The position numbers and the translations under genes are program-made. Source: an uncultured Candidatus Saccharibacteria bacterium (GTDB lineage: Bacteria; Patescibacteriota; Minisyncoccia; Phycocordibacterales; UBA2100). Taken from it: a stretch of 64,000 nt of DNA. The stretch is taken from NCBI GenBank assembly GCA_964462785.1, contig CAYWZA010000001.1, positions 1,144-65,143 of the forward strand, given 5' to 3'. The notes below the pieces were generated by a model. The model was not told where the DNA came from, ran no database searches, and was given only the letters and a program-made list of their open reading frames with translations. Of the stretch, positions 1,329 to 31,608 are shown in pieces. Each line of letters begins with the position of its first letter. Positions within the stretch are counted from its first letter, which is position 1.

Positions 1329-1343
1329 CGTCAAGGTGAGGGG

Positions 1344-1769: not shown

Positions 1770-1773
1770 ATAT

Positions 1774-3000: not shown

Positions 3001-3009
3001 ACTTGAGCA

Positions 3010-4020: not shown

Positions 4021-4051
4021 CCGAATCTCCTTGATCCCGCGTACCAAGAGT

Positions 4052-5101: not shown

Positions 5102-5169
5102 AATATTTTTTGCTGTGTGCTAACCATAGCATAAAAAACTTTTTGTGCTACCGTACAAAATATACCCGT

Positions 5170-6584: not shown

Positions 6585-6595
6585 TTTTTGATCTC

Positions 6596-7591: not shown

Positions 7592-8383
7592 TTAAAGTAC
7601 CGTCGTCTTGTAGCGCTGGTTAATCTCAACGATTCCCTCAAAAAGCGACAGCCCCTTATCCTGACCAAGCAGCTTGTTTGCAAGAGCAGCGAAAGCTGCG
7701 GTATCTTTCGGAAGGCATGAGCCGCCAAAACCCCGGAAGTGCTTGTTGCAATCGAGATATACATCCTGCACATTACGGTGCTTAACAATGGCATTCTTGA
7801 TCTTTCTATAGTCCGCTCCTGCAGCCTCGCACACATCATAGAATTGATTCGCATATACCACACGCAACGCATTGAATACATTGAGAAAATATTTCGAAAA
7901 TTCTGCTTCGAGCGGCGTTACGATCGAAAACTGTTTCGGCAGAGGTTCGTGCACTTGTTTCAACATATCCGCATCTTCCGGCGTGTATGCCCCGATGATG
8001 CACACATCGTGATTTTCAATGAAATCGACATACATGGCTCGCTCACGCAAAAACTCTGGACAGAAAGCGAATCGCAGTGCCGGATGCCTTTTCGCCAATC
8101 GGTCGGTCGTACCGGGTTCAACAGTCGATTTAATGGTGACCAAACCGCGATATTTTTCCTGCGCCAAGCTTTCCGCCACTTTTTCCACGATCGACACATC
8201 GCATGCACCATCCTGCCCCAACGGAGTAGGAACACAGATAAAAACCAATTCTGTGCCAAGCACGTCATTAAGAGATGTCTCGGGCATTTTCACATCAAAA
8301 ATAGAGACATCGTGACCTATGCGCGTTATGCCGTGCCGCACAGCTGTCCCCACAAGCCCGACGCCGATGATTCCTACACGCAT
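7592..8383 (-). CDS. UDP-glucose/GDP-mannose 6-dehydrogenase family protein, short form lacking the C-terminal UDP-binding domain
   Basis: N-terminal NAD-binding MRVGIIGVGLVG and the catalytic-Cys motif GFGGSCLPKD. The protein ends ~40 aa after that motif (263 aa versus ~390-440 for canonical enzymes). Confidence 0.65.
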   Translation of the reverse strand: MRVGIIGVGLVGTAVRHGITRIGHDVSIFDVKMPETSLNDVLGTELVFICVPTPLGQDGACDVSIVEKVAESLAQEKYRGLVTIKSTVEPGTTDRLAKRHPALRFAFCPEFLRERAMYVDFIENHDVCIIGAYTPEDADMLKQVHEPLPKQFSIVTPLEAEFSKYFLNVFNALRVVYANQFYDVCEAAGADYRKIKNAIVKHRNVQDVYLDCNKHFRGFGGSCLPKDTAAFAALANKLLGQDKGLSLFEGIVEINQRYKTTVL

Positions 8384-10119: not shown

Positions 10120-12984
10120 TTATTCTCTACGCCGACCGGTCACGACGAACAAAGCACCCTCTGAAGCAATGTTCCCAAGCCACGAGATCTGGGTCAGGGC
10201 GCGCATGAGACCGGATCCGGAACTGGTTTCCTCAAATAGATTTGCCCCTGTCTTGCTCCCACCAGTGCCGATGATAGCTGGATGTGAATTCAAGTACTCA
10301 ACGTCATTTTCCTTAAACCACTCGAGTACTTCGCCGAGCGAATGCCATGTCTCGTGTGGATTGTAATACTGGTCTTTCACCCAAATATCCGCCTTGCGCG
10401 CATCGCGAATGCGATTGCGAACGACATAGTCGATGCGAGTCCCGAAAACCTTGATCAACTTCGAGCGTATCCAGGTGGGGATTCGCGCGTAGTTGTTGTA
10501 GAGACCAACAACGATGAGGCCGCCTGGTTTCACCTTCTTTACGATCTCCGCAAACGCCACGCGCGCATCGCGCGTGTGATGCAGGACGCCGGTCGATATT
10601 ACAACATCAAAGCTATTGTCCTGTATGCCGAGCTCAAAGATATTCATCTGCACAAAGCCGACACGATTAACGCTGTTTTTCTTCTTATGATCAACGGCTA
10701 GCTTGAGGCTCGAGAGTGAGAGGTCGACTCCGAGCACGTGATTATTGTTGAGAGAAAGGAAGTGCGACATCTGCCCAGTCCCGCATCCACATTCGAGAAT
10801 CAGCTTATTGAAGCCAATGGAGTCCAGGAGCCCTTTCGCAAACGGATTCTTCTCTCCCCGAACGACCAAATCACCGAAATTCTGCACGCCGTCGTAATTC
10901 GGGAACGGATTCTCCTCATAGAATGCTTTTATCTTGCCTGTCACCGGATCCTTTTCTGCCGATTCTACACCCGAGAGAAGAGATGGAACGCCATCTTTAT
11001 CAACGTAGGGTCCCTTCGCGGTCGTAAATGCCCCCTGCGTACGCAACACTGGGATGCTCTTGGATTCGCCTGGAACCTTCAGGCAGTCCAGGAGCGGCGC
11101 GGGTATCATGCCATCGTCTTTGGGTGCTCTCGACGGTTCGATCCTGTACTGCTCACTCTTGAGTAGGAGGACATTGCCAATAACCAGTGCGTCCATTTCC
11201 GTTTTCATAAAGCACTGGTAGGCATCGCTCGGCGTGAGAACTATCGGCTCATCGCGGACATTAAAACTGGTGTTCACGAGAAGTCCGTAGCCAGTCTTTT
11301 TCTTGAATGCGTCGAGTAGACTCCAGAAACGCTCGTTCGTCTTGCGCGAAACCGTCTGCAAACGAGCTGAATAGTCGAGGTGGGTGACCGCCGGGATATC
11401 GGAGCGCACTGCATTGAGACGCTCTTGTATGGTTCCTCTCGCGGGTGCAGCCAATCGTCGCTCTTGCTTGACCGGCGCGGTGAAGAGCATGTAAGGCGAT
11501 GGAGATCCTACTTCGAAATATTCATTCGCATCTTCCTCCAAGACAGCCGGAGCGAATGGACGGAATCCTTCTCGGTATTTTATCTTTAGGTTCAGCTTCT
11601 TTTGCATGACCGGATTACGCGCGTCAGCCAGGATGCTGCGATTACCCAAAGCTCGCGGTCCCCACTCTGCCCTTCCCTGCATCCAACCAACGATGTTACC
11701 TTCACTAAGGAGCTCCGCCGCACGTTCATACAGTTTTTCCATGCTATCGAATTGTGTGTATGATGCACCAAATCGTCGTAAGTCCTTAAGCGTCTCATCG
11801 TCAGAAAAAGAAGGACCGAGATATGAGCCCTGCATGCTGTCTGTCGCATGCCTATCGAGGGTGCGGGCGCCATCGAAATATATGTGATGAGCTACCAGTG
11901 CCGCACCCAGCGCACCCCCAGCATCGCCCGCAGCCGGCTGTACCCACACCCGATCGAATATCTTGGCGTCAAGTATCTTTTCGTTCGCAACGCAATTAAG
12001 TGCGACACCACCAGCCAAAACCAAATTATTAGCGCCCGTAAGCGTCCGTGCAGTGCGGACGAGACGCAGTAACACTTCTTCGGTCACTTCCTGTATGGCA
12101 AGCGCGAGATCCATATACTCGCTCGACAGTTCATCTCCTGCCATGCGGGGTGGGAGACCGAAGAGCTTTGTCCATTTCTCGTCATTCACGGTGCGTAGCG
12201 AGGTCGCGAACAGGAAATAGGACATGTTCAGAAAGAACGAGCCATCTTCCTTGAGATCAATGAGCTCATCGAAAATTTTCTTTTTGTATTCTTTTACGCG
12301 CATGCTTCCTCGGTTTCCATATGGTGCGAGTCCCATGAGTTTGTATTCGCCATCATTGATCGCAAAACCGCAATAGTATGTAAAAGCCGAATATAAAAGT
12401 CCGAGCGAATGCGGAAACTGCATCTCCTTGATGATGGTGACTTCTTTGTCATGCCCGCGCCCGATGGTCGTGGTCGCCCACTCGCCCACACCATCGACCG
12501 TAAGAATCGCGGCCTCTTCGAACGGCGAGGGGTAAAAAGCACTCGCCGCATGCGATATGTGATGTTCGGGAAAGAGAAGTCGTGGTTTTCTGACGAATTT
12601 CTTTCCTTCGATCTTCTCGAGCTCTTTAAGGAGCACGCTACGAATGAAGAGTTTGTCCTTGATCCATATCGGCATCGACCTCGCGAATCCCGCGAGACCT
12701 TTTGGAGCATATCGATGATACGTCTCCAGAAGACGCTCGAACTTCAGAAGCGGCTTGTCATAAAAGACTATGGCATCGAGATCCGACGGCTTGAGACCGC
12801 ACTCGGAGAGCACATAGCGAGTAGCGTGCTCAGGAAAAGAATCGTCATGCTTGCGCCTCGTGAAGCGCTCCTCGTGAGCCGCCGCAACAATCTTTCCATT
12901 TACGAGAAGTGCGGCGGCGGCATCGTGAAAATACGCCGAAACGCCGAGGATCTTCCTACCCCTTTGATCCATATTCCCCGTCAT
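10120..12984 (-). CDS. NodU/CmcH-family carbamoyltransferase fused to a C-terminal class I SAM-dependent methyltransferase
   Basis: The N-terminal ~600 aa has the carbamoyltransferase/Kae1-like architecture (ILGVSAYFHDAAAALL…HHISHAASAF…ALGNRSIL…). The C-terminal ~200 aa has ILECGCGTGQMSHFL (SAM motif I) and VVGLYNNY. Total length 954 aa. Confidence 0.8.
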   Translation of the reverse strand: MTGNMDQRGRKILGVSAYFHDAAAALLVNGKIVAAAHEERFTRRKHDDSFPEHATRYVLSECGLKPSDLDAIVFYDKPLLKFERLLETYHRYAPKGLAGFARSMPIWIKDKLFIRSVLLKELEKIEGKKFVRKPRLLFPEHHISHAASAFYPSPFEEAAILTVDGVGEWATTTIGRGHDKEVTIIKEMQFPHSLGLLYSAFTYYCGFAINDGEYKLMGLAPYGNRGSMRVKEYKKKIFDELIDLKEDGSFFLNMSYFLFATSLRTVNDEKWTKLFGLPPRMAGDELSSEYMDLALAIQEVTEEVLLRLVRTARTLTGANNLVLAGGVALNCVANEKILDAKIFDRVWVQPAAGDAGGALGAALVAHHIYFDGARTLDRHATDSMQGSYLGPSFSDDETLKDLRRFGASYTQFDSMEKLYERAAELLSEGNIVGWMQGRAEWGPRALGNRSILADARNPVMQKKLNLKIKYREGFRPFAPAVLEEDANEYFEVGSPSPYMLFTAPVKQERRLAAPARGTIQERLNAVRSDIPAVTHLDYSARLQTVSRKTNERFWSLLDAFKKKTGYGLLVNTSFNVRDEPIVLTPSDAYQCFMKTEMDALVIGNVLLLKSEQYRIEPSRAPKDDGMIPAPLLDCLKVPGESKSIPVLRTQGAFTTAKGPYVDKDGVPSLLSGVESAEKDPVTGKIKAFYEENPFPNYDGVQNFGDLVVRGEKNPFAKGLLDSIGFNKLILECGCGTGQMSHFLSLNNNHVLGVDLSLSSLKLAVDHKKKNSVNRVGFVQMNIFELGIQDNSFDVVISTGVLHHTRDARVAFAEIVKKVKPGGLIVVGLYNNYARIPTWIRSKLIKVFGTRIDYVVRNRIRDARKADIWVKDQYYNPHETWHSLGEVLEWFKENDVEYLNSHPAIIGTGGSKTGANLFEETSSGSGLMRALTQISWLGNIASEGALFVVTGRRRE

Positions 12985-13575: not shown

Positions 13576-14709
13576 ATGTTACAGAGATCGAAAGGTCTTC
13601 TAATCAACGGTGCCGTGCTTCTCAGTACACTCGCCGTCCTTTTCGCCGCAGGAGAGATCTATGTACGGACTATGGGGATGAGGTCTGACAAGATAATAGC
13701 CCTCAACACATGTGTCGGCTTCAAAGATAAGCCGGGGACACAAACTGTCTTCGAAACTCCTGATGGTCCCGTCACTGTTTCTATAAACAGCGCCGGCTAC
13801 CGCGACGTTGAGCATGCGGTCGCAAAAGCTCCGGATACCTATCGCATTCTCATGCTAGGCGATTCGTTTACTGAAGCACTCCAGGTGAATCTTGAGGAAG
13901 CCTTCTGGCGTAAGATGCAGAAGCAGCTGGAAGAAGAGGGTCTTAAAGTCGAGATCATGTCCATGGGCGTGTCGAGTTATGGGACTCATCAAGCGCTCAT
14001 GACATACGAATGCTACGGCCGAGAATTTAAGCCCGACATGGTTATCCTCAATTTCACCAATGCGAATGACCCTGTGGACAACTACTTCAGGCGTGATGCC
14101 TTTTCGCCACAGTTTGAACTTGCAAGCGGAACACTTTCACTTAACGAGGCATTCAGGACGAACATCGCCGCACAGCAGAAGCGCCGCTCATCGCTTCCGT
14201 GGGGACCCATCTATTGGGCGAAGGAGAACTCGAAGGCGCTTCAGTATCTCTACGACCGTGTGCAGACCATACAAGGCGAGCGTCAACTTGGCAGTACGAT
14301 CGTAGAAGGAACCAACAAGATATATCTTAAAGAATACACGCAGGAGTGGCTCAATGCCTGGGATCTGACTGACGCACTGATGCGCAGACTGATCGCCAAC
14401 GTGAAGAGTGACGGCGCGCGTTTCATACTCGTGGATATCCCAGGAGTAGAGGAGCTCGAGCCTGAACGAGTGACCGAGCCGGAAAAATATGACCTGGCAC
14501 AGGCTGACAAGCATCTGCGTACTTTTGCAGAAAAAGAAGACGTCACTTATATAAGCCTGTTCCCCGCCATCTCTGCGGCACACACACAAAAACCCGTACA
14601 CTGGCCATATGACGCGCATTGGAATCCATACGGCCACACGGTCGCCGCGCAAACAATTCTCGAAGAACTGAAGAGATTAGTTCCTCAGTTACAGCAGAAG
14701 ACACCGTAG
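13576..14709 (+). CDS. SGNH/GDSL hydrolase-fold protein with N-terminal TM anchor (AlgJ/AlgX/PatB-like O-acyltransferase partner)
   Basis: N-terminal TM helix, block I LMLGDSFTE (GDS(L) motif), and C-terminal YDAHWN (DxxH catalytic block). It lies immediately upstream of an MBOAT gene. Confidence 0.7.
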   Translation: MLQRSKGLLINGAVLLSTLAVLFAAGEIYVRTMGMRSDKIIALNTCVGFKDKPGTQTVFETPDGPVTVSINSAGYRDVEHAVAKAPDTYRILMLGDSFTEALQVNLEEAFWRKMQKQLEEEGLKVEIMSMGVSSYGTHQALMTYECYGREFKPDMVILNFTNANDPVDNYFRRDAFSPQFELASGTLSLNEAFRTNIAAQQKRRSSLPWGPIYWAKENSKALQYLYDRVQTIQGERQLGSTIVEGTNKIYLKEYTQEWLNAWDLTDALMRRLIANVKSDGARFILVDIPGVEELEPERVTEPEKYDLAQADKHLRTFAEKEDVTYISLFPAISAAHTQKPVHWPYDAHWNPYGHTVAAQTILEELKRLVPQLQQKTP

Positions 14710-14765
14710 GGGCAGCAAATCCCTACCTTTGGAAAAAAGGGGGTACTGTGATATTTTTGAAGCTC

Positions 14766-16280
14766 ATGAGCTTCGCGGATGTACGCTTTCTTGTTTTTTT
14801 TCCCGTCGTCACCGCGCTGTATGTGCTGCTACCGCAACGCTACCGCTGGATGTTTCTGCTCGTTGCAAGTTATTTCTTCTACATGCTGTGGCGCCCAGAA
14901 TATGGGCTCCTTCTCGCTCTCATAACCGTCATAGACTTTACCGCAGCGATTCTTATCGGGCGCGCACACACTGAGGTACAGCGCCGTATATTTCTTATCG
15001 CAAGCCTCGTTGCAAATCTCGGTCTCCTTTTTTACTTTAAATACCTCAATTTTGTCCTCTCTTCGTTCCAGGAAGTGTTGGCGTTTGCGGGCAACGACAT
15101 CTCATTCCCCGTGCTCAACATACTCCTGCCTATAGGTATTTCATTCCACATTTTTCAAAGCATGAGCTACACAATCGATGTGTACCGACGACGCGTCGAA
15201 CCCGTCAGGCATCTTGGTAAATTCGCTCTCTATGTCAGTTTTTTCCCGCAATTGGTCGCTGGTCCTATCGAACGTCCACAAGGGCTTCTAAAGCAGATCA
15301 TGGAAGGTCGTGCATTTGATCTCGCAAAAGCAAAGAGCGGGACCAAACTCATGTTTTGGGGTTTCTTTAAAAAACTTGTAATCGCTGATAATCTAGCGCC
15401 GCTGGTAAACGCTGCGTACGCTTCGCCAGAAAATTTTCCCGGCCCCACGCTCGCGTTCGCAACGGTGCTTTTCGCCTATCAGATCTACTGCGACTTCTCC
15501 GGTTACACCGATATCGCGCGGGGTTCGGCGCGCATACTCGGCTACGATCTCATGCTCAACTTCAATCGTCCTTTTCATGCGACATCCCTCACCGATTTTT
15601 GGAACCGGTGGCATATTTCGCTTTCAACTTGGCTACGCGATTATCTGTATTATCCGCTTGCTCTGCGTGGAAAGAACCATTCGAGGATTCGTATCTATTC
15701 GAGCGTTTTTATCACCCTGGTACTCATTGGTCTCTGGCACGGCGCCAATTGGACGTATGTCCTGTTCGGTGCTATCCACGGAGTGTATCTCGTCGTCGGC
15801 ACGGCGACGCTTGGGATGCGCAACCTCGCCTATCGTAGATTCTGGAAGCCGTTCGGTAGGATGGCGCCTCCAACATTCCTAAAGACTCTGACCGTATTCG
15901 CAATGGTTTGTTTTTCGTATATATTCTTTCGCGCGGAAACAACGGCAGACGCACTATTCATCATCGAGCGGATTCCTCAGGGTGGCGCTGAATTTCTCCA
16001 GGGACTGTGGAGCATCGAGGGGATCAAACACGTACTGGGGATGGATGTGTCCCTTTCAGGACAATGGGGATCGATGCTCTTGCCAGGTATCGTAGTCGCC
16101 ATACTTGGCATCCTGTTCATGGAGTTAATTGAGTGGCTCCACGCACACGGCAATCTCTCGAAACGACTCGCGCTTATCCCATACCGTTGGCGCCTAGTGC
16201 TCTTTGCTGTGGGCGGATTCACTATTATGACTTTCGGCGGATTTGCCACTCCACAGCAATTCATTTATTTCCAATTCTGA
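14766..16280 (+). CDS. MBOAT-family membrane-bound O-acyltransferase (AlgI/DltB/PatA-like)
   Basis: Polytopic membrane protein with the MBOAT N-terminus (MSFADVRFLVFFPVVTALYVLLP) and the conserved-His block LIGLWHGANWTYVLFG. The ORF begins at 14619 inside the upstream gene; I prefer M at 14766. Confidence 0.85.
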   Translation: MSFADVRFLVFFPVVTALYVLLPQRYRWMFLLVASYFFYMLWRPEYGLLLALITVIDFTAAILIGRAHTEVQRRIFLIASLVANLGLLFYFKYLNFVLSSFQEVLAFAGNDISFPVLNILLPIGISFHIFQSMSYTIDVYRRRVEPVRHLGKFALYVSFFPQLVAGPIERPQGLLKQIMEGRAFDLAKAKSGTKLMFWGFFKKLVIADNLAPLVNAAYASPENFPGPTLAFATVLFAYQIYCDFSGYTDIARGSARILGYDLMLNFNRPFHATSLTDFWNRWHISLSTWLRDYLYYPLALRGKNHSRIRIYSSVFITLVLIGLWHGANWTYVLFGAIHGVYLVVGTATLGMRNLAYRRFWKPFGRMAPPTFLKTLTVFAMVCFSYIFFRAETTADALFIIERIPQGGAEFLQGLWSIEGIKHVLGMDVSLSGQWGSMLLPGIVVAILGILFMELIEWLHAHGNLSKRLALIPYRWRLVLFAVGGFTIMTFGGFATPQQFIYFQF

Positions 16281-16287
16281 CAAACCT

Positions 16288-17298
16288 ATGATTACTCCTG
16301 AACAAAAAGAGTTCATGCGCTACGGGCGCGATATAGCGATTTGCGGAGTGATAATCGCACTATTATGCAGCCTCGTGATGTTGCTCAGCTACAATCCCGC
16401 TTCCTACTACAATATGATGGCCAAAGAGGTGCGTCTCGCCGCCGCACCACATCCTCGTCTTTTTGTCATCGGAGGTTCGGGAGCAGGCATCAGCATCGAT
16501 TCGGAACTCATCCAAGAAGAGACTGGGTACAACACGCTAAACATGGGCGTAAGCGCAGGCTTGGGGTTGCGATTCATGTTCAGGTCGATCGAGGATGAAC
16601 TTCGTGATGGAGACGTCGTCCTCTATTTCATGGAATCAACTGTCGTACAGCAACCACTCTACGCCGACGGCGCGGCGCTGTTTGCCACCCTCCACCCCAG
16701 CCCTAGTTATGCGCTCACGATACTCCGTGATGTTGATGTATTTACAGCACACACGATTGTAGACATGGTCCGCAAATTCCCTACATATCTACAACAACAA
16801 ACACGCGGTCTCTATATTCGAAAAATAGAGTCGCTCATATACGAACCGGAGCCCACCTTAAGCGAACGTCTTTATAACGTTTACAACTTCAACGCCTACG
16901 GAGACGTAGACTCCACCGTTGCGGGAGACAAGCACCTCTCCACAGAAGAGGTTCTGAAAAGCGACATTGGTCGTATCGGAGACCGCGGGACTGATCCCCG
17001 TACCCTAAGTCTACTCGCCGAAATGATTAGATCACTTAACGACCGTGGCGTACGTGTATTCGTTTTGTGGCCCGCATATGCGAAGGTGTTTTACGACCAA
17101 AAATTGGATCCTGTGCAGGAACGCAATAAAGAGATTGTTGAGCGACTCGGGCGCGACAACGTAATCGGAAACGTGGACGATTTCATTCTTAATGACGAAC
17201 TGTTTCTTGACCACTCCTCACACCTGACAAGCGCGGGGCGGGATGAATATACAAGGCGTCTCATCCCTTTACTCCTGCCGCATTTGAACGCAAAATAA
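16288..17298 (+). CDS. DltD/AlgJ-like SGNH-type protein with N-terminal TM anchor (third member of the O-acylation triad)
   Basis: N-terminal TM, VIGGSGAGISID block I-like, and C-terminal DHSSHLTSAG (DxxH). It lies downstream of the MBOAT. The ORF begins at 16243; I prefer MITPEQ at 16288. Confidence 0.5.
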   Translation: MITPEQKEFMRYGRDIAICGVIIALLCSLVMLLSYNPASYYNMMAKEVRLAAAPHPRLFVIGGSGAGISIDSELIQEETGYNTLNMGVSAGLGLRFMFRSIEDELRDGDVVLYFMESTVVQQPLYADGAALFATLHPSPSYALTILRDVDVFTAHTIVDMVRKFPTYLQQQTRGLYIRKIESLIYEPEPTLSERLYNVYNFNAYGDVDSTVAGDKHLSTEEVLKSDIGRIGDRGTDPRTLSLLAEMIRSLNDRGVRVFVLWPAYAKVFYDQKLDPVQERNKEIVERLGRDNVIGNVDDFILNDELFLDHSSHLTSAGRDEYTRRLIPLLLPHLNAK

Positions 17299-17302
17299 CG
17301 TC

Positions 17303-17653
17303 ATGGTGAAAGATGACATCAAGGGTGTCGGGGTTGACATGGTTGCTATCTCGCGGATGCGTCGCGTCGTCCGAGAAAAGCGCGAGCGCTTCTTAGCGAA
17401 TACCTTTAGCCCACTGGAGCGCGCATATTGTTTTTCACATAAAGATCCTGCGCCCCACTTTGCCGGGACATTTGCCGCCAAGGAGGCCGTGCGCAAGGCC
17501 ACATCTCACTACCCCGCTTTCGCCGAGCTGGAGGTGCGCCGAAGAAAAGACGGACGACCAGAGATATGGGCCCGTGGCCGTCGCGTATCTTCCATATTGA
17601 TCTCGATCACTCACACGGATACAATCGCCTGCGCGATAGCGCTCGCACAATGA
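17303..17653 (+). CDS. acpS: Holo-ACP synthase (4'-phosphopantetheinyl transferase)
   Basis: GVGVDMVAISRM at the N-terminus and FAGTFAAKEAVRKA, ~116 aa, typical AcpS. Immediately upstream of an FkbH-like gene and an ACP. Confidence 0.75.
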   Translation: MVKDDIKGVGVDMVAISRMRRVVREKRERFLANTFSPLERAYCFSHKDPAPHFAGTFAAKEAVRKATSHYPAFAELEVRRRKDGRPEIWARGRRVSSILISITHTDTIACAIALAQ

Positions 17654-17656
17654 TGT

Positions 17657-18694
17657 ATGAAAAAATGTATTGTTCTTGATTTAGACAACACCCTTTGGGG
17701 CGGCATAATTGGGGAAGATGGGCCTGCTGGCATCGCCCTTTCCCACAAAGGGAAAGGTGCTGATTTCGTCGCTTTCCAACAAGCGCTTCTTGATATGTAT
17801 GACCGCGGGATCATCCTTGCCATTAACAGCAACAACAACCCTGACGACGCACTTGATGTCATTCGCACAAATCCGAACATGATTCTTAAGGAAAAGCATT
17901 TTGCTGCACATCGCATCAATTGGAACGATAAGGCGACAAATATGCGGGAACTCGCAAAAGAGCTGAACATCGGTCTCGATTCAATGGTATTTTTTGACGA
18001 TAGTCCTACAAATCGCCACGCAGTGCGCGGACTCCTGCTGGAAGTCGAGGTTCCGGAATTACCTGAAGATCCAGCCCTCTATACGAAAACTTTGCTTGGG
18101 CTTCCCTATTTCACAGGCAAAGCCATCACCGATGAGGACAAGATGCGTGGCAACCTCTACGTGACTGAGAGGCTCCGCAAAGAAGCGCAGGGAAACTTTT
18201 CAAGTCACGAGGAGTTTTTGAAAAGCCTCGGTCTCGAAGTACATGTCTTTCGCAACGACAACGAATCGCTTGAACGCCTTGCGCAACTCACCGAAAAAAC
18301 GAACCAATTTAATACCAACAAGCGCCCCTTATCTGTTGACGAGGTCCGAACTATCGTCGAGAGCGCCACACATGATGTGTTCCACGCCCGAGTGACCGAT
18401 CGGTTCGGCGACTACGGTATCACGGCAGTCGCATTCATCGAAAAACTTGGAAATCGGTGGCATATCGACACCCTCTTGATGAGTTGTCGAGTCCTCGGGC
18501 GCGGCATCGAACAGTCGTTCATGCGAGCCATTGCCACTGCCGCTGAAAAAGAAGGTGTGCATACTATCACCATCACATTCACGCCCACTGAGAAAAATGC
18601 CCCAGCGCGAACTTTTATTGAAAGCACTTTTACCGATGAAAAATTAATTACTTCGGAGACAGAGCTCCCTCCATGGATTACACTACAAGTATGA
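17657..18694 (+). CDS. FkbH-like HAD-IIIC domain protein (predicted glyceryl/acyl-ACP loading enzyme)
   Basis: N-terminal VLDLDNTLWGG (HAD subfamily IIIC/FkbH signature) plus a ~150-aa C-terminal GNAT-like/acyltransferase region. Confidence 0.7.
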   Translation: MKKCIVLDLDNTLWGGIIGEDGPAGIALSHKGKGADFVAFQQALLDMYDRGIILAINSNNNPDDALDVIRTNPNMILKEKHFAAHRINWNDKATNMRELAKELNIGLDSMVFFDDSPTNRHAVRGLLLEVEVPELPEDPALYTKTLLGLPYFTGKAITDEDKMRGNLYVTERLRKEAQGNFSSHEEFLKSLGLEVHVFRNDNESLERLAQLTEKTNQFNTNKRPLSVDEVRTIVESATHDVFHARVTDRFGDYGITAVAFIEKLGNRWHIDTLLMSCRVLGRGIEQSFMRAIATAAEKEGVHTITITFTPTEKNAPARTFIESTFTDEKLITSETELPPWITLQV

Positions 18695-18921
18695 AAAGCT
18701 TCAACGATATCGTTTTCGAACAACTCCATATCCCCAAGGAGGAGATTCAAGATACTTTGACCCCTAGTGACGTAGAGAATTGGGACTCCATGAATTATCT
18801 ACTCTTCATCGCGGAACTCGAAAAAGAATATAGCATCTCGTTCACAATGGACGAAGTGTTGTCTGCTCAATCATTGGGCGCAGTACGCACCATCGTGCAG
18901 GGAAAAGGAGTGACTGTATGA
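18691..18921 (+). CDS. Acyl carrier protein
   Basis: ~76 aa with the WDSMNYLLFIAELEKEY phosphopantetheine-attachment Ser motif (DSM). Its ATG at 18691 overlaps the FkbH-like stop (ATGA). The ORF track starts it at 18673. Confidence 0.75.
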   Translation: MKSFNDIVFEQLHIPKEEIQDTLTPSDVENWDSMNYLLFIAELEKEYSISFTMDEVLSAQSLGAVRTIVQGKGVTV

Positions 18922-19334
18922 ACGCCGCCGATCGTTCGTTCGAGTCGCTCATGGTCGGAGAGACTCACGCGGAAGAACATCATATAGATGAGCGTATGGT
19001 TGCGGCGTTTGCCGAACTCTCAGGTGATAAAAATCCCCTCCACACCGATGAAAGCTACGCGGCAACGACACCACTCAAGAGACCCGTTGCTCACGGCATG
19101 CTCTTGGGTGCACTGGTTTCCGAGATGGTCGGCATGCACATCCCTGGCAAGCGCTGCCTTATCGTCAAAATGTCACTATCGTTCCACCATCCAATATTCC
19201 CAGGAGATACCGTGCGTATCATAGGTACTATTGTGCACAAAAGCGAGGCGCTCCAGCTCCTTGAGATTAGTGTATCCGCAATGCGCGCGGATGAACTCGT
19301 TGCTGAGGGTATCGTACACACAAAAGTATTATGA
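18918..19334 (+). CDS. MaoC-like (hot-dog fold) dehydratase
   Basis: NPLHTDESYA matches the MaoC/(R)-hydratase motif (NPIHxDxxYA); ~138 aa, hot-dog size. Confidence 0.7.
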   Translation: MNAADRSFESLMVGETHAEEHHIDERMVAAFAELSGDKNPLHTDESYAATTPLKRPVAHGMLLGALVSEMVGMHIPGKRCLIVKMSLSFHHPIFPGDTVRIIGTIVHKSEALQLLEISVSAMRADELVAEGIVHTKVL

Positions 19335-20047
19335 AAAAGGAACGGAAACCGATTGCGCTTCTCACTGGTGGTTCCGGCTATGTCGGCACCGCTATCGCGC
19401 AAGAGCTCATCCGCCGCAACTTTCTTCCTATACTTCTCTCACGAAACCCGATCGCATTCGATGGTGCCGAGACTCGTTCATGTAACATTAGCAATGAGCG
19501 CGCGCTTGAATCGATTATAGAAGGCATCGTGGGTACGCATGGGCACATCGATGCCTGCATACATGCCGCGGTCGCGGCAACAACGAGAACAGCGCTCCTC
19601 GATACGCCTTCGGAAGCATTCGAAAATGAATTTTCCGTCTCGGTGCGTGGCGCATTTTTACTCGCCAAATATGCCGTGCCACACATGCCGAAGGATTCGA
19701 CATTCATCGGTATTACCACAGTGTCGATTGAAAAAGAAAAGCCTGACAGCCGCATCGGCGCATATCTGCCAGCGAAGCAAGCGCTCCGCACCCTGCTACG
19801 TGTACTCGCGACTGAACTCGTCTCGAAACGGATACGTGTCTACGCGGTAGCGCCACCTGTCCTCCCCGGCGGACTCAACAACAGCCTGCCTGAACCCGTC
19901 CGCAATCTCCTTTCAAGACAGAGCGATGGCAGCACTGCTTCAGCGGATGATGTCGCCCACATCGTAGCGGATTTATGCATAGACGCCACCGCTTTCCCGT
20001 CGGGAGTGTCGATTACCTCACCCTCGCGGGCTATCGCCTCATTGTAG
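19331..20047 (+). CDS. SDR-family reductase (ketoacyl-ACP-reductase-like)
   Basis: LLTGGSGYVGTAIA Rossmann motif and YLPAKQA (YxxxK). Confidence 0.7.
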   Translation: MKKERKPIALLTGGSGYVGTAIAQELIRRNFLPILLSRNPIAFDGAETRSCNISNERALESIIEGIVGTHGHIDACIHAAVAATTRTALLDTPSEAFENEFSVSVRGAFLLAKYAVPHMPKDSTFIGITTVSIEKEKPDSRIGAYLPAKQALRTLLRVLATELVSKRIRVYAVAPPVLPGGLNNSLPEPVRNLLSRQSDGSTASADDVAHIVADLCIDATAFPSGVSITSPSRAIASL

Positions 20048-20066
20048 TCAGCGCTATACTGCCTTC

Positions 20067-21833
20067 ATGTGCGGCATTATCGGCCTGATTGGGGGCAATC
20101 CTGAAACGCGCGAGAGTGCCGTCTCCCATGCGCTTTCTGCACTTGCGCGGCGCGGACCTGACGCACACGGCGTGGTTGATTTCCCAAACTCAACACTTGG
20201 TCATACAAGACTTTCTATCATCGACATTTCAACTGGCGGGCAACCGATGAAAGACCGCGCGACCGCAAATACGATCATTTTCAATGGCGAAATCTATAAC
20301 TATAAAGCACTCCGCACTAAACTTGAACATAAAGGGCATGCGTTTGCCACCACTTCTGACACCGAGGTGATTCTCAAGTGCTATGCCGAATACGGGGATA
20401 GTTGTCCGGAACATCTGGATGGTCAGTTTGCGTTTGCCATCTGGGATGATGCGCGACAGCGTCTGTTTATGGCTCGCGACCGCTTCGGAGAAAAACCGCT
20501 TTTCTACAGCCAGAGCGGGAGCATGTTTCTCTTTGCATCTGAGATCAAGGCGCTGCTTGCGACAGGATTGGTCAACACAACGCTCGACCGCACATCGCTC
20601 GACAACTATCTTGCCCTTTATTTCATCCCGCCATGGCGCAGTATCTATCGCGATATCACACCGCTCTTGCCTGCACACCGCGCTGTATACGAAAACGGCA
20701 CATTGAAAATAGAACGCTATTGGAAACTTGAACGCAAACCATTCGCTATTTCCTATGACGACGCGGCATTTCGCGTGCGGGAACTCCTTTCGCAATCCGC
20801 AGAAAGCAGGATGGTCGCTGATGTCGAAGTGGGCGTGTTCCTTTCCGGCGGTATTGATTCGAGTATTGTGACCGCGCTCGCCCAATCACACGCGAAGGGC
20901 AAACTTAAATCATTCTCTGCGGGGTTTGATGAGCATATCAACGAACTGCCCTATGCGCGCGAGGTTGCGGAGCATGTTGGCACCGATCATTACGAACGTA
21001 ATGTGCCCGTCCTCCTCGATGACATCCGCGCTGTCACGCGCTATTACGACGAGCCGATGGGTGATTCATCTAATGTACCAACTGCTCTCATATCAAAACT
21101 TGCGCGCGAAAAAGTGAAGGTCGCACTCTCTGGCGATGGCGGCGATGAATTATTTTTCGGCTACGGTCACTATCGCGCGCACTGGCATTTGCCTAAGATG
21201 AAGAAGCTCTTTGCGCTTCTCCTACGGTATGATCCGCATGCGCTGTATACGAGGAGCGGCATCACGATGTTCCGGCCTGCGGAGCGCGCACGCCTTTTCA
21301 GGGATGCGGGCGCGATTGAGACCGATCCGACAACGCGCGTAGATCTTTCCGCAGCAGAAACTCCTCTTCAGAAAATAAATCTATTGGACATATATTTGAA
21401 ACTTCCTGGCAACATGCTGACGAAAGTGGACCGTTCATCCATGATGCACTCACTTGAAGTGCGCAGTCCGTTTCTGAATCCCGAATTGGCGCAGTTCGCG
21501 TTTAATCTGCCTGATGAGTTCAAAACAGACCGCGGCCGCGGCAAACTCATTCTCGAGAAAGCATGCGGCGACCTCCTACCCCGCCCGGTGTTCCATCGAA
21601 AAAAACAGGGCTTCGGCGCGCCAGTGAAGCATTGGCTCAAAGAACCTGCTCTTGAAAAGTTACTGCGAGAAATGTTCGGAAGCGATGCGCGTGTGGGCGG
21701 TTTTTTGCGAATGGAAGCTGTGCACAGTTATATTAACGCGTTCTATGCGGGGGAGCCGGTTTCGTATAAGCTCTGGGTCCTCTTCGCGCTCGAACTCTGG
21801 ATGCGGGAACATGAAGGTCAGTATTCACTATAA
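20067..21833 (+). CDS. Asparagine synthetase B-like glutamine amidotransferase (WbpS-type sugar/acid amidotransferase candidate)
   Basis: N-terminal MCGIIGLIG (class-II GATase Cys2) and the PP-loop SGGIDSS of the asparagine-synthase domain; 588 aa. Confidence 0.85.
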   Translation: MCGIIGLIGGNPETRESAVSHALSALARRGPDAHGVVDFPNSTLGHTRLSIIDISTGGQPMKDRATANTIIFNGEIYNYKALRTKLEHKGHAFATTSDTEVILKCYAEYGDSCPEHLDGQFAFAIWDDARQRLFMARDRFGEKPLFYSQSGSMFLFASEIKALLATGLVNTTLDRTSLDNYLALYFIPPWRSIYRDITPLLPAHRAVYENGTLKIERYWKLERKPFAISYDDAAFRVRELLSQSAESRMVADVEVGVFLSGGIDSSIVTALAQSHAKGKLKSFSAGFDEHINELPYAREVAEHVGTDHYERNVPVLLDDIRAVTRYYDEPMGDSSNVPTALISKLAREKVKVALSGDGGDELFFGYGHYRAHWHLPKMKKLFALLLRYDPHALYTRSGITMFRPAERARLFRDAGAIETDPTTRVDLSAAETPLQKINLLDIYLKLPGNMLTKVDRSSMMHSLEVRSPFLNPELAQFAFNLPDEFKTDRGRGKLILEKACGDLLPRPVFHRKKQGFGAPVKHWLKEPALEKLLREMFGSDARVGGFLRMEAVHSYINAFYAGEPVSYKLWVLFALELWMREHEGQYSL

Positions 21834-27548: not shown

Positions 27549-28565
27549 ATGAAAAAGGCTCTTGTATGCGGGGGTGGAGGCTTCATTGGCAGCCATCATG
27601 TCAAACGCCTGAAAAAGGAGGGTTGGTGGGTACGTGTGGTGGACCTAAAAAAGCCACTCTTTTCGGAGAGTGCCGCTGATGAATTCGTAATAGGCGACCT
27701 GCGAGATCCCCAGGTAGTTGCGGCTGTTCTCAATGAGCCATTCGACCGCGTCTATCAATATGCTGCCGATATGGGTGGGGCGGGTTTTATTTTTACCGGC
27801 GAGAACGATGCGGACGTAATGCATAATTCCGCAACCATCAATCTCAATATCGCACAGCGCGCTACCGAGGTGGGTGTCGGTGTTCTTTTCTATTCTTCAT
27901 CCGCATGCATCTACCCAGAACGCAATCAGATGGATCCCGATAATCCGAACTGCAGTGAAGAGTCGGCATACCCCGCTGCACCCGACAGTGAATATGGGTG
28001 GGAGAAGATATTTAGCGAGCGTCTGTACAGTGCATTTCACCGAAACAAGGGGTTAGACATCCGTATCGCTCGTTTTCACAATATCTTTGGCCCTGAAGGT
28101 ACGTGGGCTGGCGGTCGCGAAAAGGCTCCAGCCGCAATCTCGCGAAAGGTCGCTGAAGCCAAACACGGTTATTGTATGGAAATGTGGGAAGGAGGTCGTC
28201 AACAAAATCTCCCTTACATTGAAATCTGGGGCGACGGCAAGCAGACACGTTCGTTTTTATACGTCGAGGAGTGCATCGAGGGGGTGGAACGGCTCATTGC
28301 ATCCGATGTCAGGCAGCCAATCAACATTGGCTCTGATGAGATGGTGACCATTAATGATCTTGTGCGGATGGTGCTCGAGATCAGTGGCGTTCCCCGCGCA
28401 GCCATTAATCATGTACCTGGGCCACAGGGTGTGCGCGGACGCAATTCCGACAATCGGCTGATTAGAGAGCAGCTTGGTTGGACGCCGGCGCGACCATTAC
28501 GAGAGGGCATGGAGAAGACATACCTATGGGTAGAACAACAAGTATTAAAGACGAAGCGGCAGTAA
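27549..28565 (+). CDS. GDP-mannose 3,5-epimerase-like NAD-dependent epimerase
   Basis: VCGGGGFIGSH, YGWEK (YxxxK) and especially FHNIFGPEGTWAGGREKAPAAISRK, which closely matches the GME block (GP.GTW.GGREKAPAA). The ORF begins at 27471; I prefer MKKALV at 27549. Confidence 0.7.
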   Translation: MKKALVCGGGGFIGSHHVKRLKKEGWWVRVVDLKKPLFSESAADEFVIGDLRDPQVVAAVLNEPFDRVYQYAADMGGAGFIFTGENDADVMHNSATINLNIAQRATEVGVGVLFYSSSACIYPERNQMDPDNPNCSEESAYPAAPDSEYGWEKIFSERLYSAFHRNKGLDIRIARFHNIFGPEGTWAGGREKAPAAISRKVAEAKHGYCMEMWEGGRQQNLPYIEIWGDGKQTRSFLYVEECIEGVERLIASDVRQPINIGSDEMVTINDLVRMVLEISGVPRAAINHVPGPQGVRGRNSDNRLIREQLGWTPARPLREGMEKTYLWVEQQVLKTKRQ

Positions 28566-29884
28566 CCGTTTCGGTGATCGGGCTGGGAAAGCTCGGCTCA
28601 TGTTACGCCGCGTTCTGCGCGAATCATGGATTCGCCGTTATTGGCACTGATGCAGATGCAAAAAAAGTAGACGCGATTAATAAAGGTCTCGCGCCCGTCG
28701 AGGAGCCCAATCTTCAGTCATATATAGATAAGAACAAAAATCGTTTGCGTGCTGTATATGACACGCAGGAAGCGGTCCGCGCATCAAACGCAACATTCAT
28801 AATCGTGCCCACGCCGAGTGAGGGTACGGGCGCCTTTTCGCTTGCACCGGCCATGACTGCCTGTACCGAAATCGGAAAGTCACTAGCTAAAAAGAATGGT
28901 TATCACCTTGTGGTCTTGGTGTCTACCGTTCTTCCTGAGGACTGCCGCTCAAACCTGATTCCCGCAATCGAACGTGCCTCAGGGAAAAAATGTGGCCCTA
29001 ATTTTGGATTCTGCTATAGCCCGAGCTTAATCGCTATTGGCGATGTACTCCATAATTTGGAGCATCCCGACTTTCTTTTCTTAGGTGCATTCGATAAAAA
29101 ATCCGATGGAATGCTCACGCGGATCTATGCTCAACTCTACCCAAAGCTCACCCCCGAGCACATGTCGATTGAGAGCGGAGAACTTGCAAAGATAGCGCTC
29201 AACTCATATGTAACAATGAAGATCACGTTTGCAAACACACTTGGAATACTCTGTGAGCATATCCCGCACGCCGATGTTGATCAGATTACGACCGCACTTG
29301 GCAAAGACAAGCGCATCGGCTCGCATTACATCAAAAGCGGGCTCGGATTCGGAGGGCCATGCTTTCCGCGAGACAACACCGCTTTTGCACACATGGCCGC
29401 ACGTCGCGGTGTTCACACTCCGCTTGCACGCGCCACGGACGAATTCAACAAAGGTATGCCGAGTAACATAGCCCGCCTTCTCGTCAAACTTGCGAAGATC
29501 CGCAAAACAAAATGTATCGGCTTTCTAGGTATCAGTTACAAGCCGAATACGACGCTTACGGAAGATTCCCAAGCGTTCCTCATAGCAAAAGAGATGGTGC
29601 AACGCGGATATAAGCTATCAATATATGAGCCTCTTAACAGTCGCGAGGCTGAGGCGCGTTTCGATAAGAAAGCCCGGTACTCAGCGACATTAAAAGACCT
29701 GCTTAGTTCGAGTGACATCATCTTTATCTCGAACAGAGACGAGCATTTCCGCACTCTGCCTGCCCTTCTGCGCAAGGTGTCGGGAAAAAAGATCATCGTC
29801 GACCCCTGGAGGATGTTCGCTCCAAAAGAATTCAATCCCGCGATTACCTATCATGCCATCGGCCGTTCACACTCTTCTCGCTAG
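28526..29884 (+). CDS. Nucleotide-sugar 6-dehydrogenase (UDP-glucose/GDP-mannose dehydrogenase family, full length)
   Basis: VIGLGKLGS NAD-binding motif, catalytic GFGGPCFPRD, and the complete C-terminal UDP-binding domain (GISYKPNTTL). The start is uncertain: MGRTT at 28526 overlaps the upstream gene, with an alternative GTG at ~28577. Confidence 0.85.
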   Translation: MGRTTSIKDEAAVTVSVIGLGKLGSCYAAFCANHGFAVIGTDADAKKVDAINKGLAPVEEPNLQSYIDKNKNRLRAVYDTQEAVRASNATFIIVPTPSEGTGAFSLAPAMTACTEIGKSLAKKNGYHLVVLVSTVLPEDCRSNLIPAIERASGKKCGPNFGFCYSPSLIAIGDVLHNLEHPDFLFLGAFDKKSDGMLTRIYAQLYPKLTPEHMSIESGELAKIALNSYVTMKITFANTLGILCEHIPHADVDQITTALGKDKRIGSHYIKSGLGFGGPCFPRDNTAFAHMAARRGVHTPLARATDEFNKGMPSNIARLLVKLAKIRKTKCIGFLGISYKPNTTLTEDSQAFLIAKEMVQRGYKLSIYEPLNSREAEARFDKKARYSATLKDLLSSSDIIFISNRDEHFRTLPALLRKVSGKKIIVDPWRMFAPKEFNPAITYHAIGRSHSSR

Positions 29885-31515: not shown

Positions 31516-31608
31516 GGTGCGGATGCTAAATAGTACCATGGCCACGTGTTCTGGACACCTCATACAATTCCCCCTTATACTCACCTCGTGGGTCTTTTTA
31601 TCTCTTTG

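Follow-up and report, generated by a model that had tools for sequence, protein, structure and literature searches.

The window, a stretch of 64,000 nucleotides from an uncultured Candidatus Saccharibacteria bacterium, carries at positions 17303–21833 six plus-strand genes, for which a preliminary description proposed an ACP-based route to an acyl group within a glycan locus. All six open reading frames were confirmed with their coordinates, and Pfam and NCBIfam profile matches bore out all six domain identities. The first gene (17303–17653, 116 aa) encodes an AcpS-type phosphopantetheinyl transferase, that is, a dedicated holo-ACP synthase (PF01648, 53 bits; TIGR00556, 64.5 bits), followed by an FkbH-family loader (17657–18694, 345 aa) that combines a HAD-IIIC phosphatase with a GNAT-like domain housing Cys277 (TIGR01686, 306.5 bits against a cut-off of 146.65, with the HAD-IIIC profile TIGR01681 also matching). 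The stand-alone ACP (18691–18921; PF00550, 23 bits against a cut-off of 20.8) has 76 aa when read from the ATG overlapping the FkbH stop, as first described, while its longest open reading frame starts at 18673. It is followed by a MaoC-type (R)-hydratase/dehydratase of the hot-dog fold (18918–19334; PF01575, 69 bits), a FabG/KR-like SDR reductase (19331–20047; adh_short_C2, 98.7 bits; KR, 28.5 bits) and an AsnB-type glutamine-dependent amidotransferase with the N-terminal Cys2 present (20067–21833; TIGR01536, 468 bits against a cut-off of 267). The 4-nt overlaps attributed to the whole run hold at three of the five junctions only, where an ATGA joins FkbH to ACP, ACP to MaoC and MaoC to SDR; AcpS and FkbH are instead separated by 3 nt, and SDR and AsnB by 19 nt.

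The catalytic residues of these proteins are intact. In the FkbH-like protein, the HAD residues D8/D10, S58, K92 and D114-D115 and the S276-C277-R278 motif, which precedes a GNAT-type RxxGxG, are invariant across 26 homologs, and its AF2 model (pLDDT 88) has the expected HAD and GNAT folds. The GNAT-like domain had earlier been suggested as the enzyme that transfers the acyl group to sugar; the domain is indeed present in the model, but this C-terminal half with its conserved Cys is a standard, integral part of the FkbH domain and need not acylate a sugar. The phosphopantetheine site of the ACP is Ser33 (codon 18787–18789), in a W-D-S-M motif, and conservation of the W-D-S serine is 90% or more across 127 sequences; the best PDB match, the putative ACP 2lml, aligns across the WDS motif. 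MaoC keeps the hydratase-2 motif G-D37-x-N-P-x-H42 (GDxNPxH), conserved in 78 homologs, and the GGxGxxG and YxxxK motifs of the SDR are conserved.

Where the preliminary description saw no obvious acyltransferase, genes for an MBOAT and two SGNH proteins lie directly upstream on the same strand, and they travel with the cassette in most relatives. The MBOAT (14766–16280, 504 aa from the ATG at 14766, with a longest reading frame from a TTG at 14619) matches PF03062 with 79 bits and the DltB profile TIGR04091 with 150 bits, which is far under the equivalog cut-off of 375. The best match among solved structures is DltB (8jem/6bug, E 2e-27), and its FWNRWH and WHG motifs conserve the equivalents of DltB His289 and His336. 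We propose that it takes the acyl group off the carrier protein and then across the membrane. Its translation ends in the hexapeptide FIYFQF (16260–16277), which matches the FxYxxF ‘acyl shuttle’ motif, the Tyr of which hands the acyl group to an SGNH partner (PMC12148441); the motif is found in 44 of 47 collected MBOATs, including every full-length cassette-linked one. Between the MBOAT and AcpS lies a gene for a membrane-anchored protein (16288–17298, 336 aa) with no match in Pfam or NCBIfam, which folds as an SGNH protein and has its longest structural alignment with DltD; we propose this DltD-like protein as the last transferase onto the polymer, or as an acceptor from the shuttle. The other SGNH/GDSL protein (13576–14709, 377 aa), AlgX-like and also membrane-anchored, has an N-terminal hydrophobic anchor and a C-terminal D-A-H-W block (PF13472, 48 bits; PF16822 ALGX, 33.6 bits against a cut-off of 26.5), and is a candidate extracytoplasmic acyl-transfer partner for the MBOAT. 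A homolog is placed between SDR and MBOAT in two related loci (L099, L104).

Linkage was assessed in Patescibacteria (CPR) relatives, using the 30 related loci whose flanks reach at least 2.5 kb upstream and 4.5 kb downstream. In this set, whose members are not independent, include several near-duplicates and come from one superphylum, AcpS adjoins FkbH in every locus and MaoC is likewise found in 30, ACP in 29, a detected SDR in 26 and an MBOAT in 19; AcpS–FkbH–ACP–MaoC(–SDR) is thus the invariant core of the cassette. The MBOAT lies 5′ of AcpS in the window, L001 and L085, and 2–6 nt after SDR in L083, L084, L107, L113, L161, L164 and others, usually with a membrane protein of about 374 aa next, so adjacency to the cassette is kept while gene order varies. 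An AAC(3)-family N-acyltransferase occurs in 7 of the 11 loci lacking an MBOAT, usually with NeuB/PseB, and the other four have neither; MBOAT and AAC(3)-type enzyme occur together in only one locus of the 30. This near-exclusive distribution is the pattern expected for alternative outlets of one acyl-ACP, and in the AAC(3)-type sub-type with NeuB/PseB the cassette is likely to serve amino-sugar N-acylation.

It is this other sub-type that fits the N-acyl substituent on an amino sugar first suggested for the window. On that earlier model, the six genes including AsnB would form one cytoplasmic cassette, the acyl group being transferred by the GNAT-like domain of FkbH or another enzyme, and AsnB would place an amide on the acyl chain or on a uronic acid. 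Such a reading can draw on the seven loci in which an AAC(3)-family enzyme and nonulosonic-acid genes (NeuB, PseB-like) accompany the cassette, and on a co-directional AsnB close downstream. We consider it quite improbable here: no aminotransferase, NeuB or N-acyltransferase was matched among the window ORFs scanned (about 1–47 kb, up to 47.5 kb), the Cys-bearing GNAT-like half belongs to every FkbH domain, and AsnB is missing from 25 of the 30 cassettes.

AsnB does not hold as a cassette member. Besides being confined to five of the related cassettes, it has orthologs of 70–74% identity in four loci without the cassette (L170–L173), two of which (L170, L172) share the AsnB–GT1a–GT2a–GT2b–FkbM synteny of the window and have no FkbH, ACP or MBOAT, and it therefore belongs with the glycan genes. 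AsnB is a co-transcribed neighbour outside the acyl module, at the start of a conserved glycan-backbone block, and probably amidates a carboxylate, a uronic acid being one putative substrate; UDP-glucose dehydrogenase genes, found in the window at 28478–29884, also adjoin AsnB in L170. The observation made in the preliminary description is confirmed and its interpretation partly supported, with the boundaries of the unit drawn wrongly. Its placing of the cassette in a glycan locus is supported; homologous cassettes are not consistently outside such loci. The L083 module stands alone amid housekeeping genes.

The same association reaches distant lineages. On Sinorhizobium meliloti pSymB, genes for an MBOAT, a 409-aa SGNH-like membrane protein (GGS...DPGH motifs), an ACP and a long FkbH adjoin the rkp capsule export genes, and comparable sets occur in Micrarchaeota (L012), Nitrosopelagicus (L025), Leptospiraceae (L068) and Reyranella (L078). 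Further afield, in a set of about 76 FkbH–ACP loci, only about eight have an MBOAT nearby. AcpS accompanies FkbH in several DPANN/Asgard archaeal loci as well, and not in most other bacterial loci.

From this gene context we infer, with about even confidence, an eight-gene surface-polymer acylation module (13576–20047) in which the cassette is coupled to the MBOAT and a C3 hydroxy-acid, most likely lactyl, passes from ACP through the MBOAT to a polymer; the module is placed 5′ of the glycan-backbone block that begins with AsnB. No ketosynthase or further acyltransferase was found within it in the ORF list or profile matches, so the simplest reading is a C3 acyl group that leaves through the MBOAT. 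We found no published description of an FkbH–ACP cassette paired with an MBOAT.

The locus might instead simply combine two unrelated neighbours: an acetyl-CoA-fed O-acetylation system of the PatAB/AlgIJX type, made up of the MBOAT and two SGNH proteins, and an ACP cassette whose acyl group exits elsewhere. A fused FxYxxF without a separate DltX is typical of acyl-CoA-using MBOATs, PatA having been shown to use acetyl-CoA (PMC12148441), and we found no feature in the MBOAT sequence that tells an acyl-ACP from an acyl-CoA donor. Moreover, the closest homologs from cultured bacteria, in Leptospira and Parabacteroides (34–38% identity over a trimmed alignment), have SGNH/DUF1574 partners and no ACP. 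Against the module reading, too, are the low DltB profile score, the absence of an MBOAT near 11 of the 30 cassettes and the frequency of MBOAT–SGNH pairs in glycan loci, with L085 and L128 each carrying a second MBOAT. We nevertheless regard coincidental neighbourhood as unlikely, since the adjacency recurs in 19 of 30 loci in two gene orders and extends to the non-glycan L083, S. meliloti and archaeal loci, the MBOAT and the N-acyltransferase sub-type nearly exclude one another, and the scanned ORFs of the window (about 1–47 kb) include no further acyl-ACP outlet enzyme.

In the module that we favour, AcpS would first turn the 76-aa ACP into holo-ACP, in keeping with the dedicated, self-primed ACP pathway originally proposed. 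Patescibacteria/CPR are widely regarded as lacking fatty-acid synthesis; this would account for a module that carries its own phosphopantetheinyl transferase. The HAD domain of FkbH would strip the 3-phosphate of 1,3-bisphosphoglycerate and Cys277 would load the glyceryl group, giving the predicted glyceryl-S-ACP; MaoC is predicted to remove the C3 hydroxyl by dehydration, yielding enol-pyruvoyl-ACP that would tautomerise to pyruvoyl-ACP, and the SDR to reduce the 2-keto group to lactyl (2-hydroxypropanoyl)-ACP. This order, and the lactyl/pyruvoyl-type C3 thioester to which it would lead, had been anticipated and remain a reasonable reading. On the cytoplasmic side the MBOAT would dock the acyl-ACP, much as DltB docks D-alanyl-DltC, and its FIYFQF Tyr would then receive the acyl group at the outer face, from where either membrane-anchored SGNH protein, via its catalytic Ser, would esterify an extracytoplasmic glycopolymer.

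The lactyl product is modelled on the DH-KR-FkbH-ACP loading modules of polyketide synthases, for which work on bryostatin and FR901464 reportedly proposed a conversion of glyceryl to lactyl starter units, and the SDR may act otherwise. It could oxidise glyceryl-ACP toward a hydroxymalonyl-type product that AsnB amidates to hydroxymalonamyl, for which the malonamyl starter of OxyD would be an analogue, or glyceryl or pyruvoyl could be transferred as such. Some related loci have no SDR (L110, L128) and others neither MaoC nor SDR (L122, S. meliloti), which makes glyceryl or pyruvoyl variants probable, and dehydrogenases that take glyceryl-ACP to hydroxymalonyl-ACP are known from methoxymalonate pathways (PMC7489565). 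For the window a non-lactyl group is nonetheless most improbable: the O-methyltransferase and the two dehydrogenases (FkbK/FkbI types) specific to that pathway are lacking, MaoC has no place in it, and AsnB is unlinked to the cassette.

Several known systems share parts of this arrangement. Like WbpS-type AsnB proteins, the window AsnB is full-length, glutamine-dependent and found among glycosyltransferases and UDP-sugar dehydrogenases, but as a putative amidotransferase neighbouring the acyl module rather than a component of it. With the FkbH/glyceryl-ACP pathways of polyketide and non-ribosomal peptide synthesis (methoxymalonyl-ACP, tetronates, loading modules) the acyl module shares an FkbH enzyme and a dedicated ACP, and the adjoining dehydratase and ketoreductase-type enzyme complete the activity set of DH-KR-FkbH-ACP loading modules; OocJ contains a documented DH-MT-FkbH-ACP module (PMC4552970). 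Here, however, each activity resides in a small protein of its own, a MaoC hot-dog protein takes the place of the PKS DH domain, ketosynthase, acyltransferase domain, FabH-like tetronate enzyme, FkbK/FkbI and FkbG are absent, and the context is a cell-envelope glycan locus of an ultra-small bacterium. PatAB, AlgIJFX and WssGHI O-acetylation systems have in common with the locus an MBOAT with invariant His and C-terminal FxYxxF, extracytoplasmic SGNH partners (one here matching the AlgX SGNH domain) and a surface-glycan setting. Those systems are described as acetyl-CoA-fed and without a carrier protein (PMC12148441), whereas here a carrier protein, loader, phosphopantetheinyl transferase and two tailoring enzymes are co-inherited in the same operon. 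In Dlt D-alanylation of Gram-positive teichoic acids (DltA, DltB, DltC, DltD, DltX), the established route runs from carrier protein to MBOAT, Tyr shuttle, SGNH protein and polymer (PMC12148441, PMC11035591), and the same flow is proposed here, with a small carrier protein that bears phosphopantetheine, an MBOAT closest to DltB among solved structures that keeps both active-site His, and a membrane-anchored SGNH-fold protein aligning structurally with DltD. The differences are that an FkbH-family HAD/GNAT enzyme replaces the DltA-type adenylating ligase, two tailoring enzymes act on the carrier-bound acyl group, a C3 hydroxy-acid would take the place of D-alanine, FxYxxF is fused to the MBOAT rather than borne by the DltX microprotein, and the module has its own AcpS. 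If true, the overall logic would be that of a Dlt-like system with an FkbH loader.

The preliminary description of this region had proposed a cassette of six plus-strand genes for the N-acylation of amino sugars, and the six ORFs are found where it had placed them, encoding AcpS (17303-17653), an FkbH-like protein (17657-18694), an acyl carrier protein (ACP; 18691-18921), a MaoC hot-dog protein (18918-19334), an SDR (19331-20047) and AsnB (20067-21833). Profile searches bear out all of the domain calls, with matches to PF01648 for AcpS, TIGR01686 and HAD-IIIC for the FkbH protein, PF00550 for the ACP, PF01575 for MaoC, adh_short_C2 for the SDR and TIGR01536 for AsnB. The ATGA overlaps hold at the FkbH/ACP, ACP/MaoC and MaoC/SDR junctions, but AcpS and FkbH are separated by a 3-nt gap and the SDR and AsnB by a 19-nt gap.

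Members of the FkbH family load a dedicated ACP with a glyceryl group drawn from 1,3-bisphosphoglycerate (PMC7489565), and by analogy the FkbH protein of the window is predicted to form glyceryl-S-ACP from the same substrate. It clears the TIGR01686 cut-off of 146.65 with 306.5 bits, aligned over model positions 3-316 of 323, and its structure model is that of a HAD plus a GNAT domain; the only solved relative is 3slr, which covers part of a Bacteroides homolog of unknown function. Across 26 sequences D8, D10, S58, K92, D114-D115 and S276-C277-R278 are invariant, with a GNAT-type RxxGxG following the S-C-R, and C277 is probably the catalytic Cys. The stand-alone ACP, a 76-aa carrier protein, overlaps the stop codon of FkbH, adjoins FkbH in 29 of the 30 close loci and in most distant loci, and carries a W-D-S serine that is at least 90% conserved (127 sequences). 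The residues whose absence would have counted against the preliminary description are all there; MaoC keeps its hydratase-2 motif and the SDR its YxxxK.

No acyl-transferase had seemed obvious from the preliminary description, a statement that passes over the three same-strand genes directly upstream, which encode an SGNH protein, an MBOAT and a 336-aa protein. The SGNH protein (13576-14709, plus strand) carries an anchor at its N-terminus and scores above the cut-offs of PF13472 and of PF16822, the AlgX SGNH domain. The MBOAT (14766-16280, plus strand) has the DltB model as its sole NCBIfam match, scoring 150 bits on TIGR04091 against an equivalog cut-off of 375, and does not rank as a DltB ortholog. 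Among solved structures its best relative is DltB (E 2e-27), and its FWNRWH and WHG motifs align with DltB His289 and His336, so that both active-site histidines are kept. The final six residues, FIYFQF, match the FxYxxF 'acyl shuttle' motif, which is present in 44 of 47 collected MBOATs, including that of Sinorhizobium meliloti (FLYQGF). The Tyr of this motif is the acyl carrier from MBOAT to SGNH in PatAB, while in Dlt the motif is found on the DltX microprotein (PMC12148441). The 336-aa protein (16288-17298, plus strand) has no family match in profile searches of Pfam and NCBIfam and is an SGNH protein by fold; Gly64-Ser65, Asn86 and His313 are invariant, only nine homologs are detectable, and hhalign relates it to a ~374-aa membrane protein that lies downstream of the MBOAT in other loci. 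The ACP, with its conserved Ser33, is encoded 2.4 kb downstream of the MBOAT in the same operon. A tree of the MBOATs was considered as evidence of donor specificity and set aside, the cassette-linked clade of Patescibacteria (CPR) lying apart from Leptospira/Parabacteroides in a way that is inseparable from organismal phylogeny.

We consider the chances evenly balanced that the MBOAT and the ACP cassette work together, a coupling read from gene context alone. In the proposed mechanism, MaoC would dehydrate glyceryl-ACP across C2-C3 to enol-pyruvoyl/pyruvoyl-ACP, which the SDR would reduce to lactyl-ACP; the acyl group would then pass from the ACP to the MBOAT, which on the basis of gene linkage may accept it from the carrier protein, and an SGNH protein would esterify an extracytoplasmic polymer. 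With no ketosynthase present, the acyl chain is expected to remain a three-carbon one. Work on bryostatin and FR901464 reportedly found these activities combined in the DH-KR-FkbH-ACP loading modules of some polyketide synthases. A DH-MT-FkbH-ACP module is documented (PMC4552970), and the later steps resemble those of Dlt, in which the acyl group moves from carrier protein to MBOAT, to Tyr, to the SGNH Ser and on to the polymer (PMC12148441, PMC11035591). A role in lipid or fatty-acid metabolism was ruled out, there being no ketosynthase or chain-extension enzyme in the module or in the scanned ORFs of the window.

Relatives of the FkbH protein were collected from species-representative genomes (80 loci), from metagenomes (80 loci, close relatives) and by gene-context look-ups, and their ORFs were annotated with the window proteins as queries. 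Linkage was counted in those 30 loci of the close family whose flanks reach at least 2.5 kb upstream and 4.5 kb downstream. AcpS is present in 30 of 30, the ACP in 29, MaoC in 30 and the SDR in 26; these counts mark the five-gene ACP core as the conserved unit. An MBOAT is encoded in 19 of the 30 loci, an AAC(3)-family (PF02522) N-acyltransferase in seven and AsnB in five. The MBOAT gene takes one of two placements, either upstream of AcpS (the window and two further loci, L001 and L085) or starting 2-6 nt past the SDR stop (L083, L084, L004, L107, L113, L161, L164 and others), and its adjacency to the cassette outlasts this change of gene order. One locus of the second kind, L083, holds AcpS-FkbH-ACP-MaoC-SDR-MBOAT-374aa amid housekeeping genes (uvrC, ddl, yceG, pyrF), outside any glycan locus. 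The association of MBOAT, FkbH and ACP also occurs in distant lineages, on S. meliloti pSymB and in loci from Micrarchaeota, Nitrosopelagicus, Leptospiraceae and Reyranella.

That the MBOAT-SGNH pair and the ACP cassette are instead two independent systems lying side by side seems to us unlikely, and we keep it as a serious reading because of several weaknesses in the case for coupling: its basis is gene context; the MBOAT belongs to the type with a fused shuttle motif, whose sole characterised member, PatA, uses acetyl-CoA (PMC12148441); the nearest cultured relatives of the MBOAT have SGNH partners and no ACP; and the loci sampled cluster by phylogeny and are in part redundant. Glycan loci also commonly hold MBOAT-SGNH pairs. 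As a separate observation, two MBOAT paralogs, each ending in FIYFQF, lie near one ACP cassette in three loci (L085, at 1256-2734 and 4379-5869, L128 and L137), raising the question of whether one acyl-ACP pool serves two transferases or one of the two uses acetyl-CoA.

Among the 11 loci that lack an MBOAT, seven encode an AAC(3)-type N-acyltransferase beside AcpS, and most of these seven also have PseB-like and NeuB genes; the other four have neither outlet. Both outlets occur together in one locus only. This pattern fits alternative outlets for one acyl-ACP. In the loci of the AAC(3) sub-type (L003, at 1185-7046, L089, L090, L092, L095, L115 and L154) the PF02522 gene takes the place of the MBOAT, upstream of AcpS, and PseB-like and NeuB genes come after it in most of them, which suggests a nonulosonic acid N-acylated with the same C3 acyl group. 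The N-acyl substituent proposed in the preliminary description suits this sister sub-type but does not fit the window locus, for which we consider it improbable.

The position of AsnB within the cassette was likewise not sustained, as it accompanies so few of the 30 cassettes and its orthologs occur without one. Four of the five loci with AsnB belong to the same synteny block as the window, and the AsnB orthologs (70-74% identity) of the CPR glycan loci L170/L171, L172 and L173 lack any FkbH, ACP or MBOAT gene within 8 kb. One of these, L172, shares with the window the order AsnB-GT1-GT2-GT2-FkbM-GT1(-)-GT2-epimerase, and compared with it the window has the acylation module set ahead of AsnB. 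The protein is of the full-length, glutamine-dependent type, begins MCGI with an N-terminal Cys, scores 468 bits on TIGR01536 against a cut-off of 267 and falls outside the XrtA-associated TIGR03108 family (461 against 817). Most likely it amidates a glycan carboxylate; UDP-sugar dehydrogenases are encoded nearby in both the window and L170. Action on the acyl chain, as for OxyD, was ruled out by the co-occurrence data.

The gene content of the window does confirm that the cassette sits in a large surface-glycan locus, which encodes a GDP-mannose dehydratase, a GT11 fucosyltransferase-like protein, epimerases, UDP-sugar dehydrogenases, WavE, a carbamoyltransferase-methyltransferase fusion, many GT1 and GT2 proteins and an FkbM-type methyltransferase. 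The nearest homologs of FkbH and AsnB are from Patescibacteria/CPR metagenome bins (Paceibacterota, Adlerbacteria, Kaiserbacteria). Several further features of the locus deserve mention. The fusion protein, of 954 aa (10120-12984, minus strand), is encoded divergently from the acylation module and joins a carbamoyltransferase (PF02543, PF16861) to a class I methyltransferase, implying that the same glycan is O-carbamoylated and methylated. Two short UDP-glucose/GDP-mannose dehydrogenase-like ORFs of 263 and 295 aa (7592-8383 and 42269-43156, both minus strand) lack the C-terminal UDP-binding domain, perhaps because the genes are split, have become pseudogenes or had their starts called wrongly; a full-length copy lies at 28478-29884, and L170 has a comparable split (343 aa plus 136 aa). 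Three CPR glycan loci (window 31546-33756, plus strand; L170 2336-4519; L172 4603-6777) share a ~730-aa protein with no Pfam match, encoded each time beside a minus-strand GT2; it may serve the glycan pathway as a polymerase or as a membrane component. A 990-aa protein with weak Ig-like and lamin-tail matches (37039-40011, minus strand) is likely a surface protein, and the glycan genes are immediately followed by a PIF1-like helicase that has HTH_40 at its C-terminus (40593-42272, minus strand).

Beyond the close family, AcpS is found beside FkbH-ACP in CPR bacteria and in DPANN/Asgard archaeal bins (L008, L009, L012, L014, L015, L059), and is missing from the FkbH-ACP loci of Acidobacteriota, Bacteroidota and Proteobacteria. 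The lineages that carry the cassette AcpS are generally held to be without a housekeeping ACP system or fatty-acid synthase, and the distribution fits a module that brings its own phosphopantetheinyl transferase into lineages without fatty-acid synthase. Some variants have no SDR (L110, L128) and others neither MaoC nor the SDR (L122, S. meliloti), which suggests that forms of the module making pyruvoyl or glyceryl groups exist. On S. meliloti pSymB the set comprises the MBOAT, a 409-aa membrane protein, the ACP and a 628-aa FkbH, and adjoins rkp capsule-export genes. The 409-aa protein, annotated as a 'TonB-dependent receptor', has GGS and DPGH motifs and an N-terminal anchor and looks like a DltD/SGNH-type partner. 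These four genes (L167 5042-10077, which is CP140955.1 1048481-1053516; also NC_020560.1 at ~631-632 kb) lie between an lsr (AI-2 uptake) operon and the rkp genes, in a region that for several RefSeq records is unannotated in the supplied table.

Taken more broadly, and tentatively, somewhat short of an even chance, these loci may represent an undescribed and widespread class of envelope modification, in which an MBOAT-SGNH pair would draw not on acyl-CoA but on a dedicated carrier protein, loaded by FkbH straight from the glycolytic 1,3-bisphosphoglycerate, and would esterify surface polymers with glyceryl, pyruvoyl or lactyl groups, extending across CPR bacteria and DPANN/Asgard archaea with their own AcpS and, in a shorter form, to S. 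meliloti pSymB. Ultra-small CPR bacteria are generally regarded as lacking fatty-acid synthesis, and such a class, if real, would explain why ACP and AcpS are kept in these cells all the same, would add a new surface modification to organisms that live attached to other cells, and would give a function to many genes for the 'HAD-IIIC family phosphatase' (FkbH-like) in bacterial and archaeal glycan loci. In the literature searched (FkbH with MBOAT, polysaccharide, lactyl-ACP or bryostatin/D-lactate) nothing tied FkbH to glycans; 'FkbH-like' referred to natural products throughout, and FkbH and MBOAT were named together for cyanobacterial peptides. The module lends itself to direct tests in vitro and, by genetics, in the cultivable S. 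meliloti.

Set against known systems, the module shares its loader chemistry with the polyketide FkbH pathways but lacks their synthase. In the methoxymalonyl-ACP pathway (FkbG-K type), two dehydrogenases and an O-methyltransferase act on glyceryl-ACP (PMC7489565), whereas the module has one MaoC and one SDR after the ACP, and profile searches found no FkbK- or FkbI-type dehydrogenase or O-methyltransferase among the genes that follow it. With PatAB and AlgIJX it has in common an MBOAT with the invariant His (WHG), a C-terminal FxYxxF and an extracytoplasmic SGNH partner, but its operon also encodes a co-inherited carrier protein, loader and phosphopantetheinyl transferase, and MBOAT/SGNH systems other than Dlt have been described as being without a carrier protein (PMC12148441, 2025). 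With Dlt it shares a carrier protein, an MBOAT and a membrane-anchored DltD-like SGNH protein, and differs from it in two respects: the shuttle motif, which in Dlt is on the separate DltX, is fused here to the MBOAT C-terminus, and FkbH takes the place of the missing DltA-type adenylating ligase, with no AMP-binding enzyme in the module or the scanned ORFs of the window. Should the coupling hold, the module would join Dlt as a second MBOAT-SGNH system that depends on a carrier protein, with another loader and another acyl group, and its D-lactyl form would give the uncharged hydroxy analogue of Dlt's D-alanyl ester.
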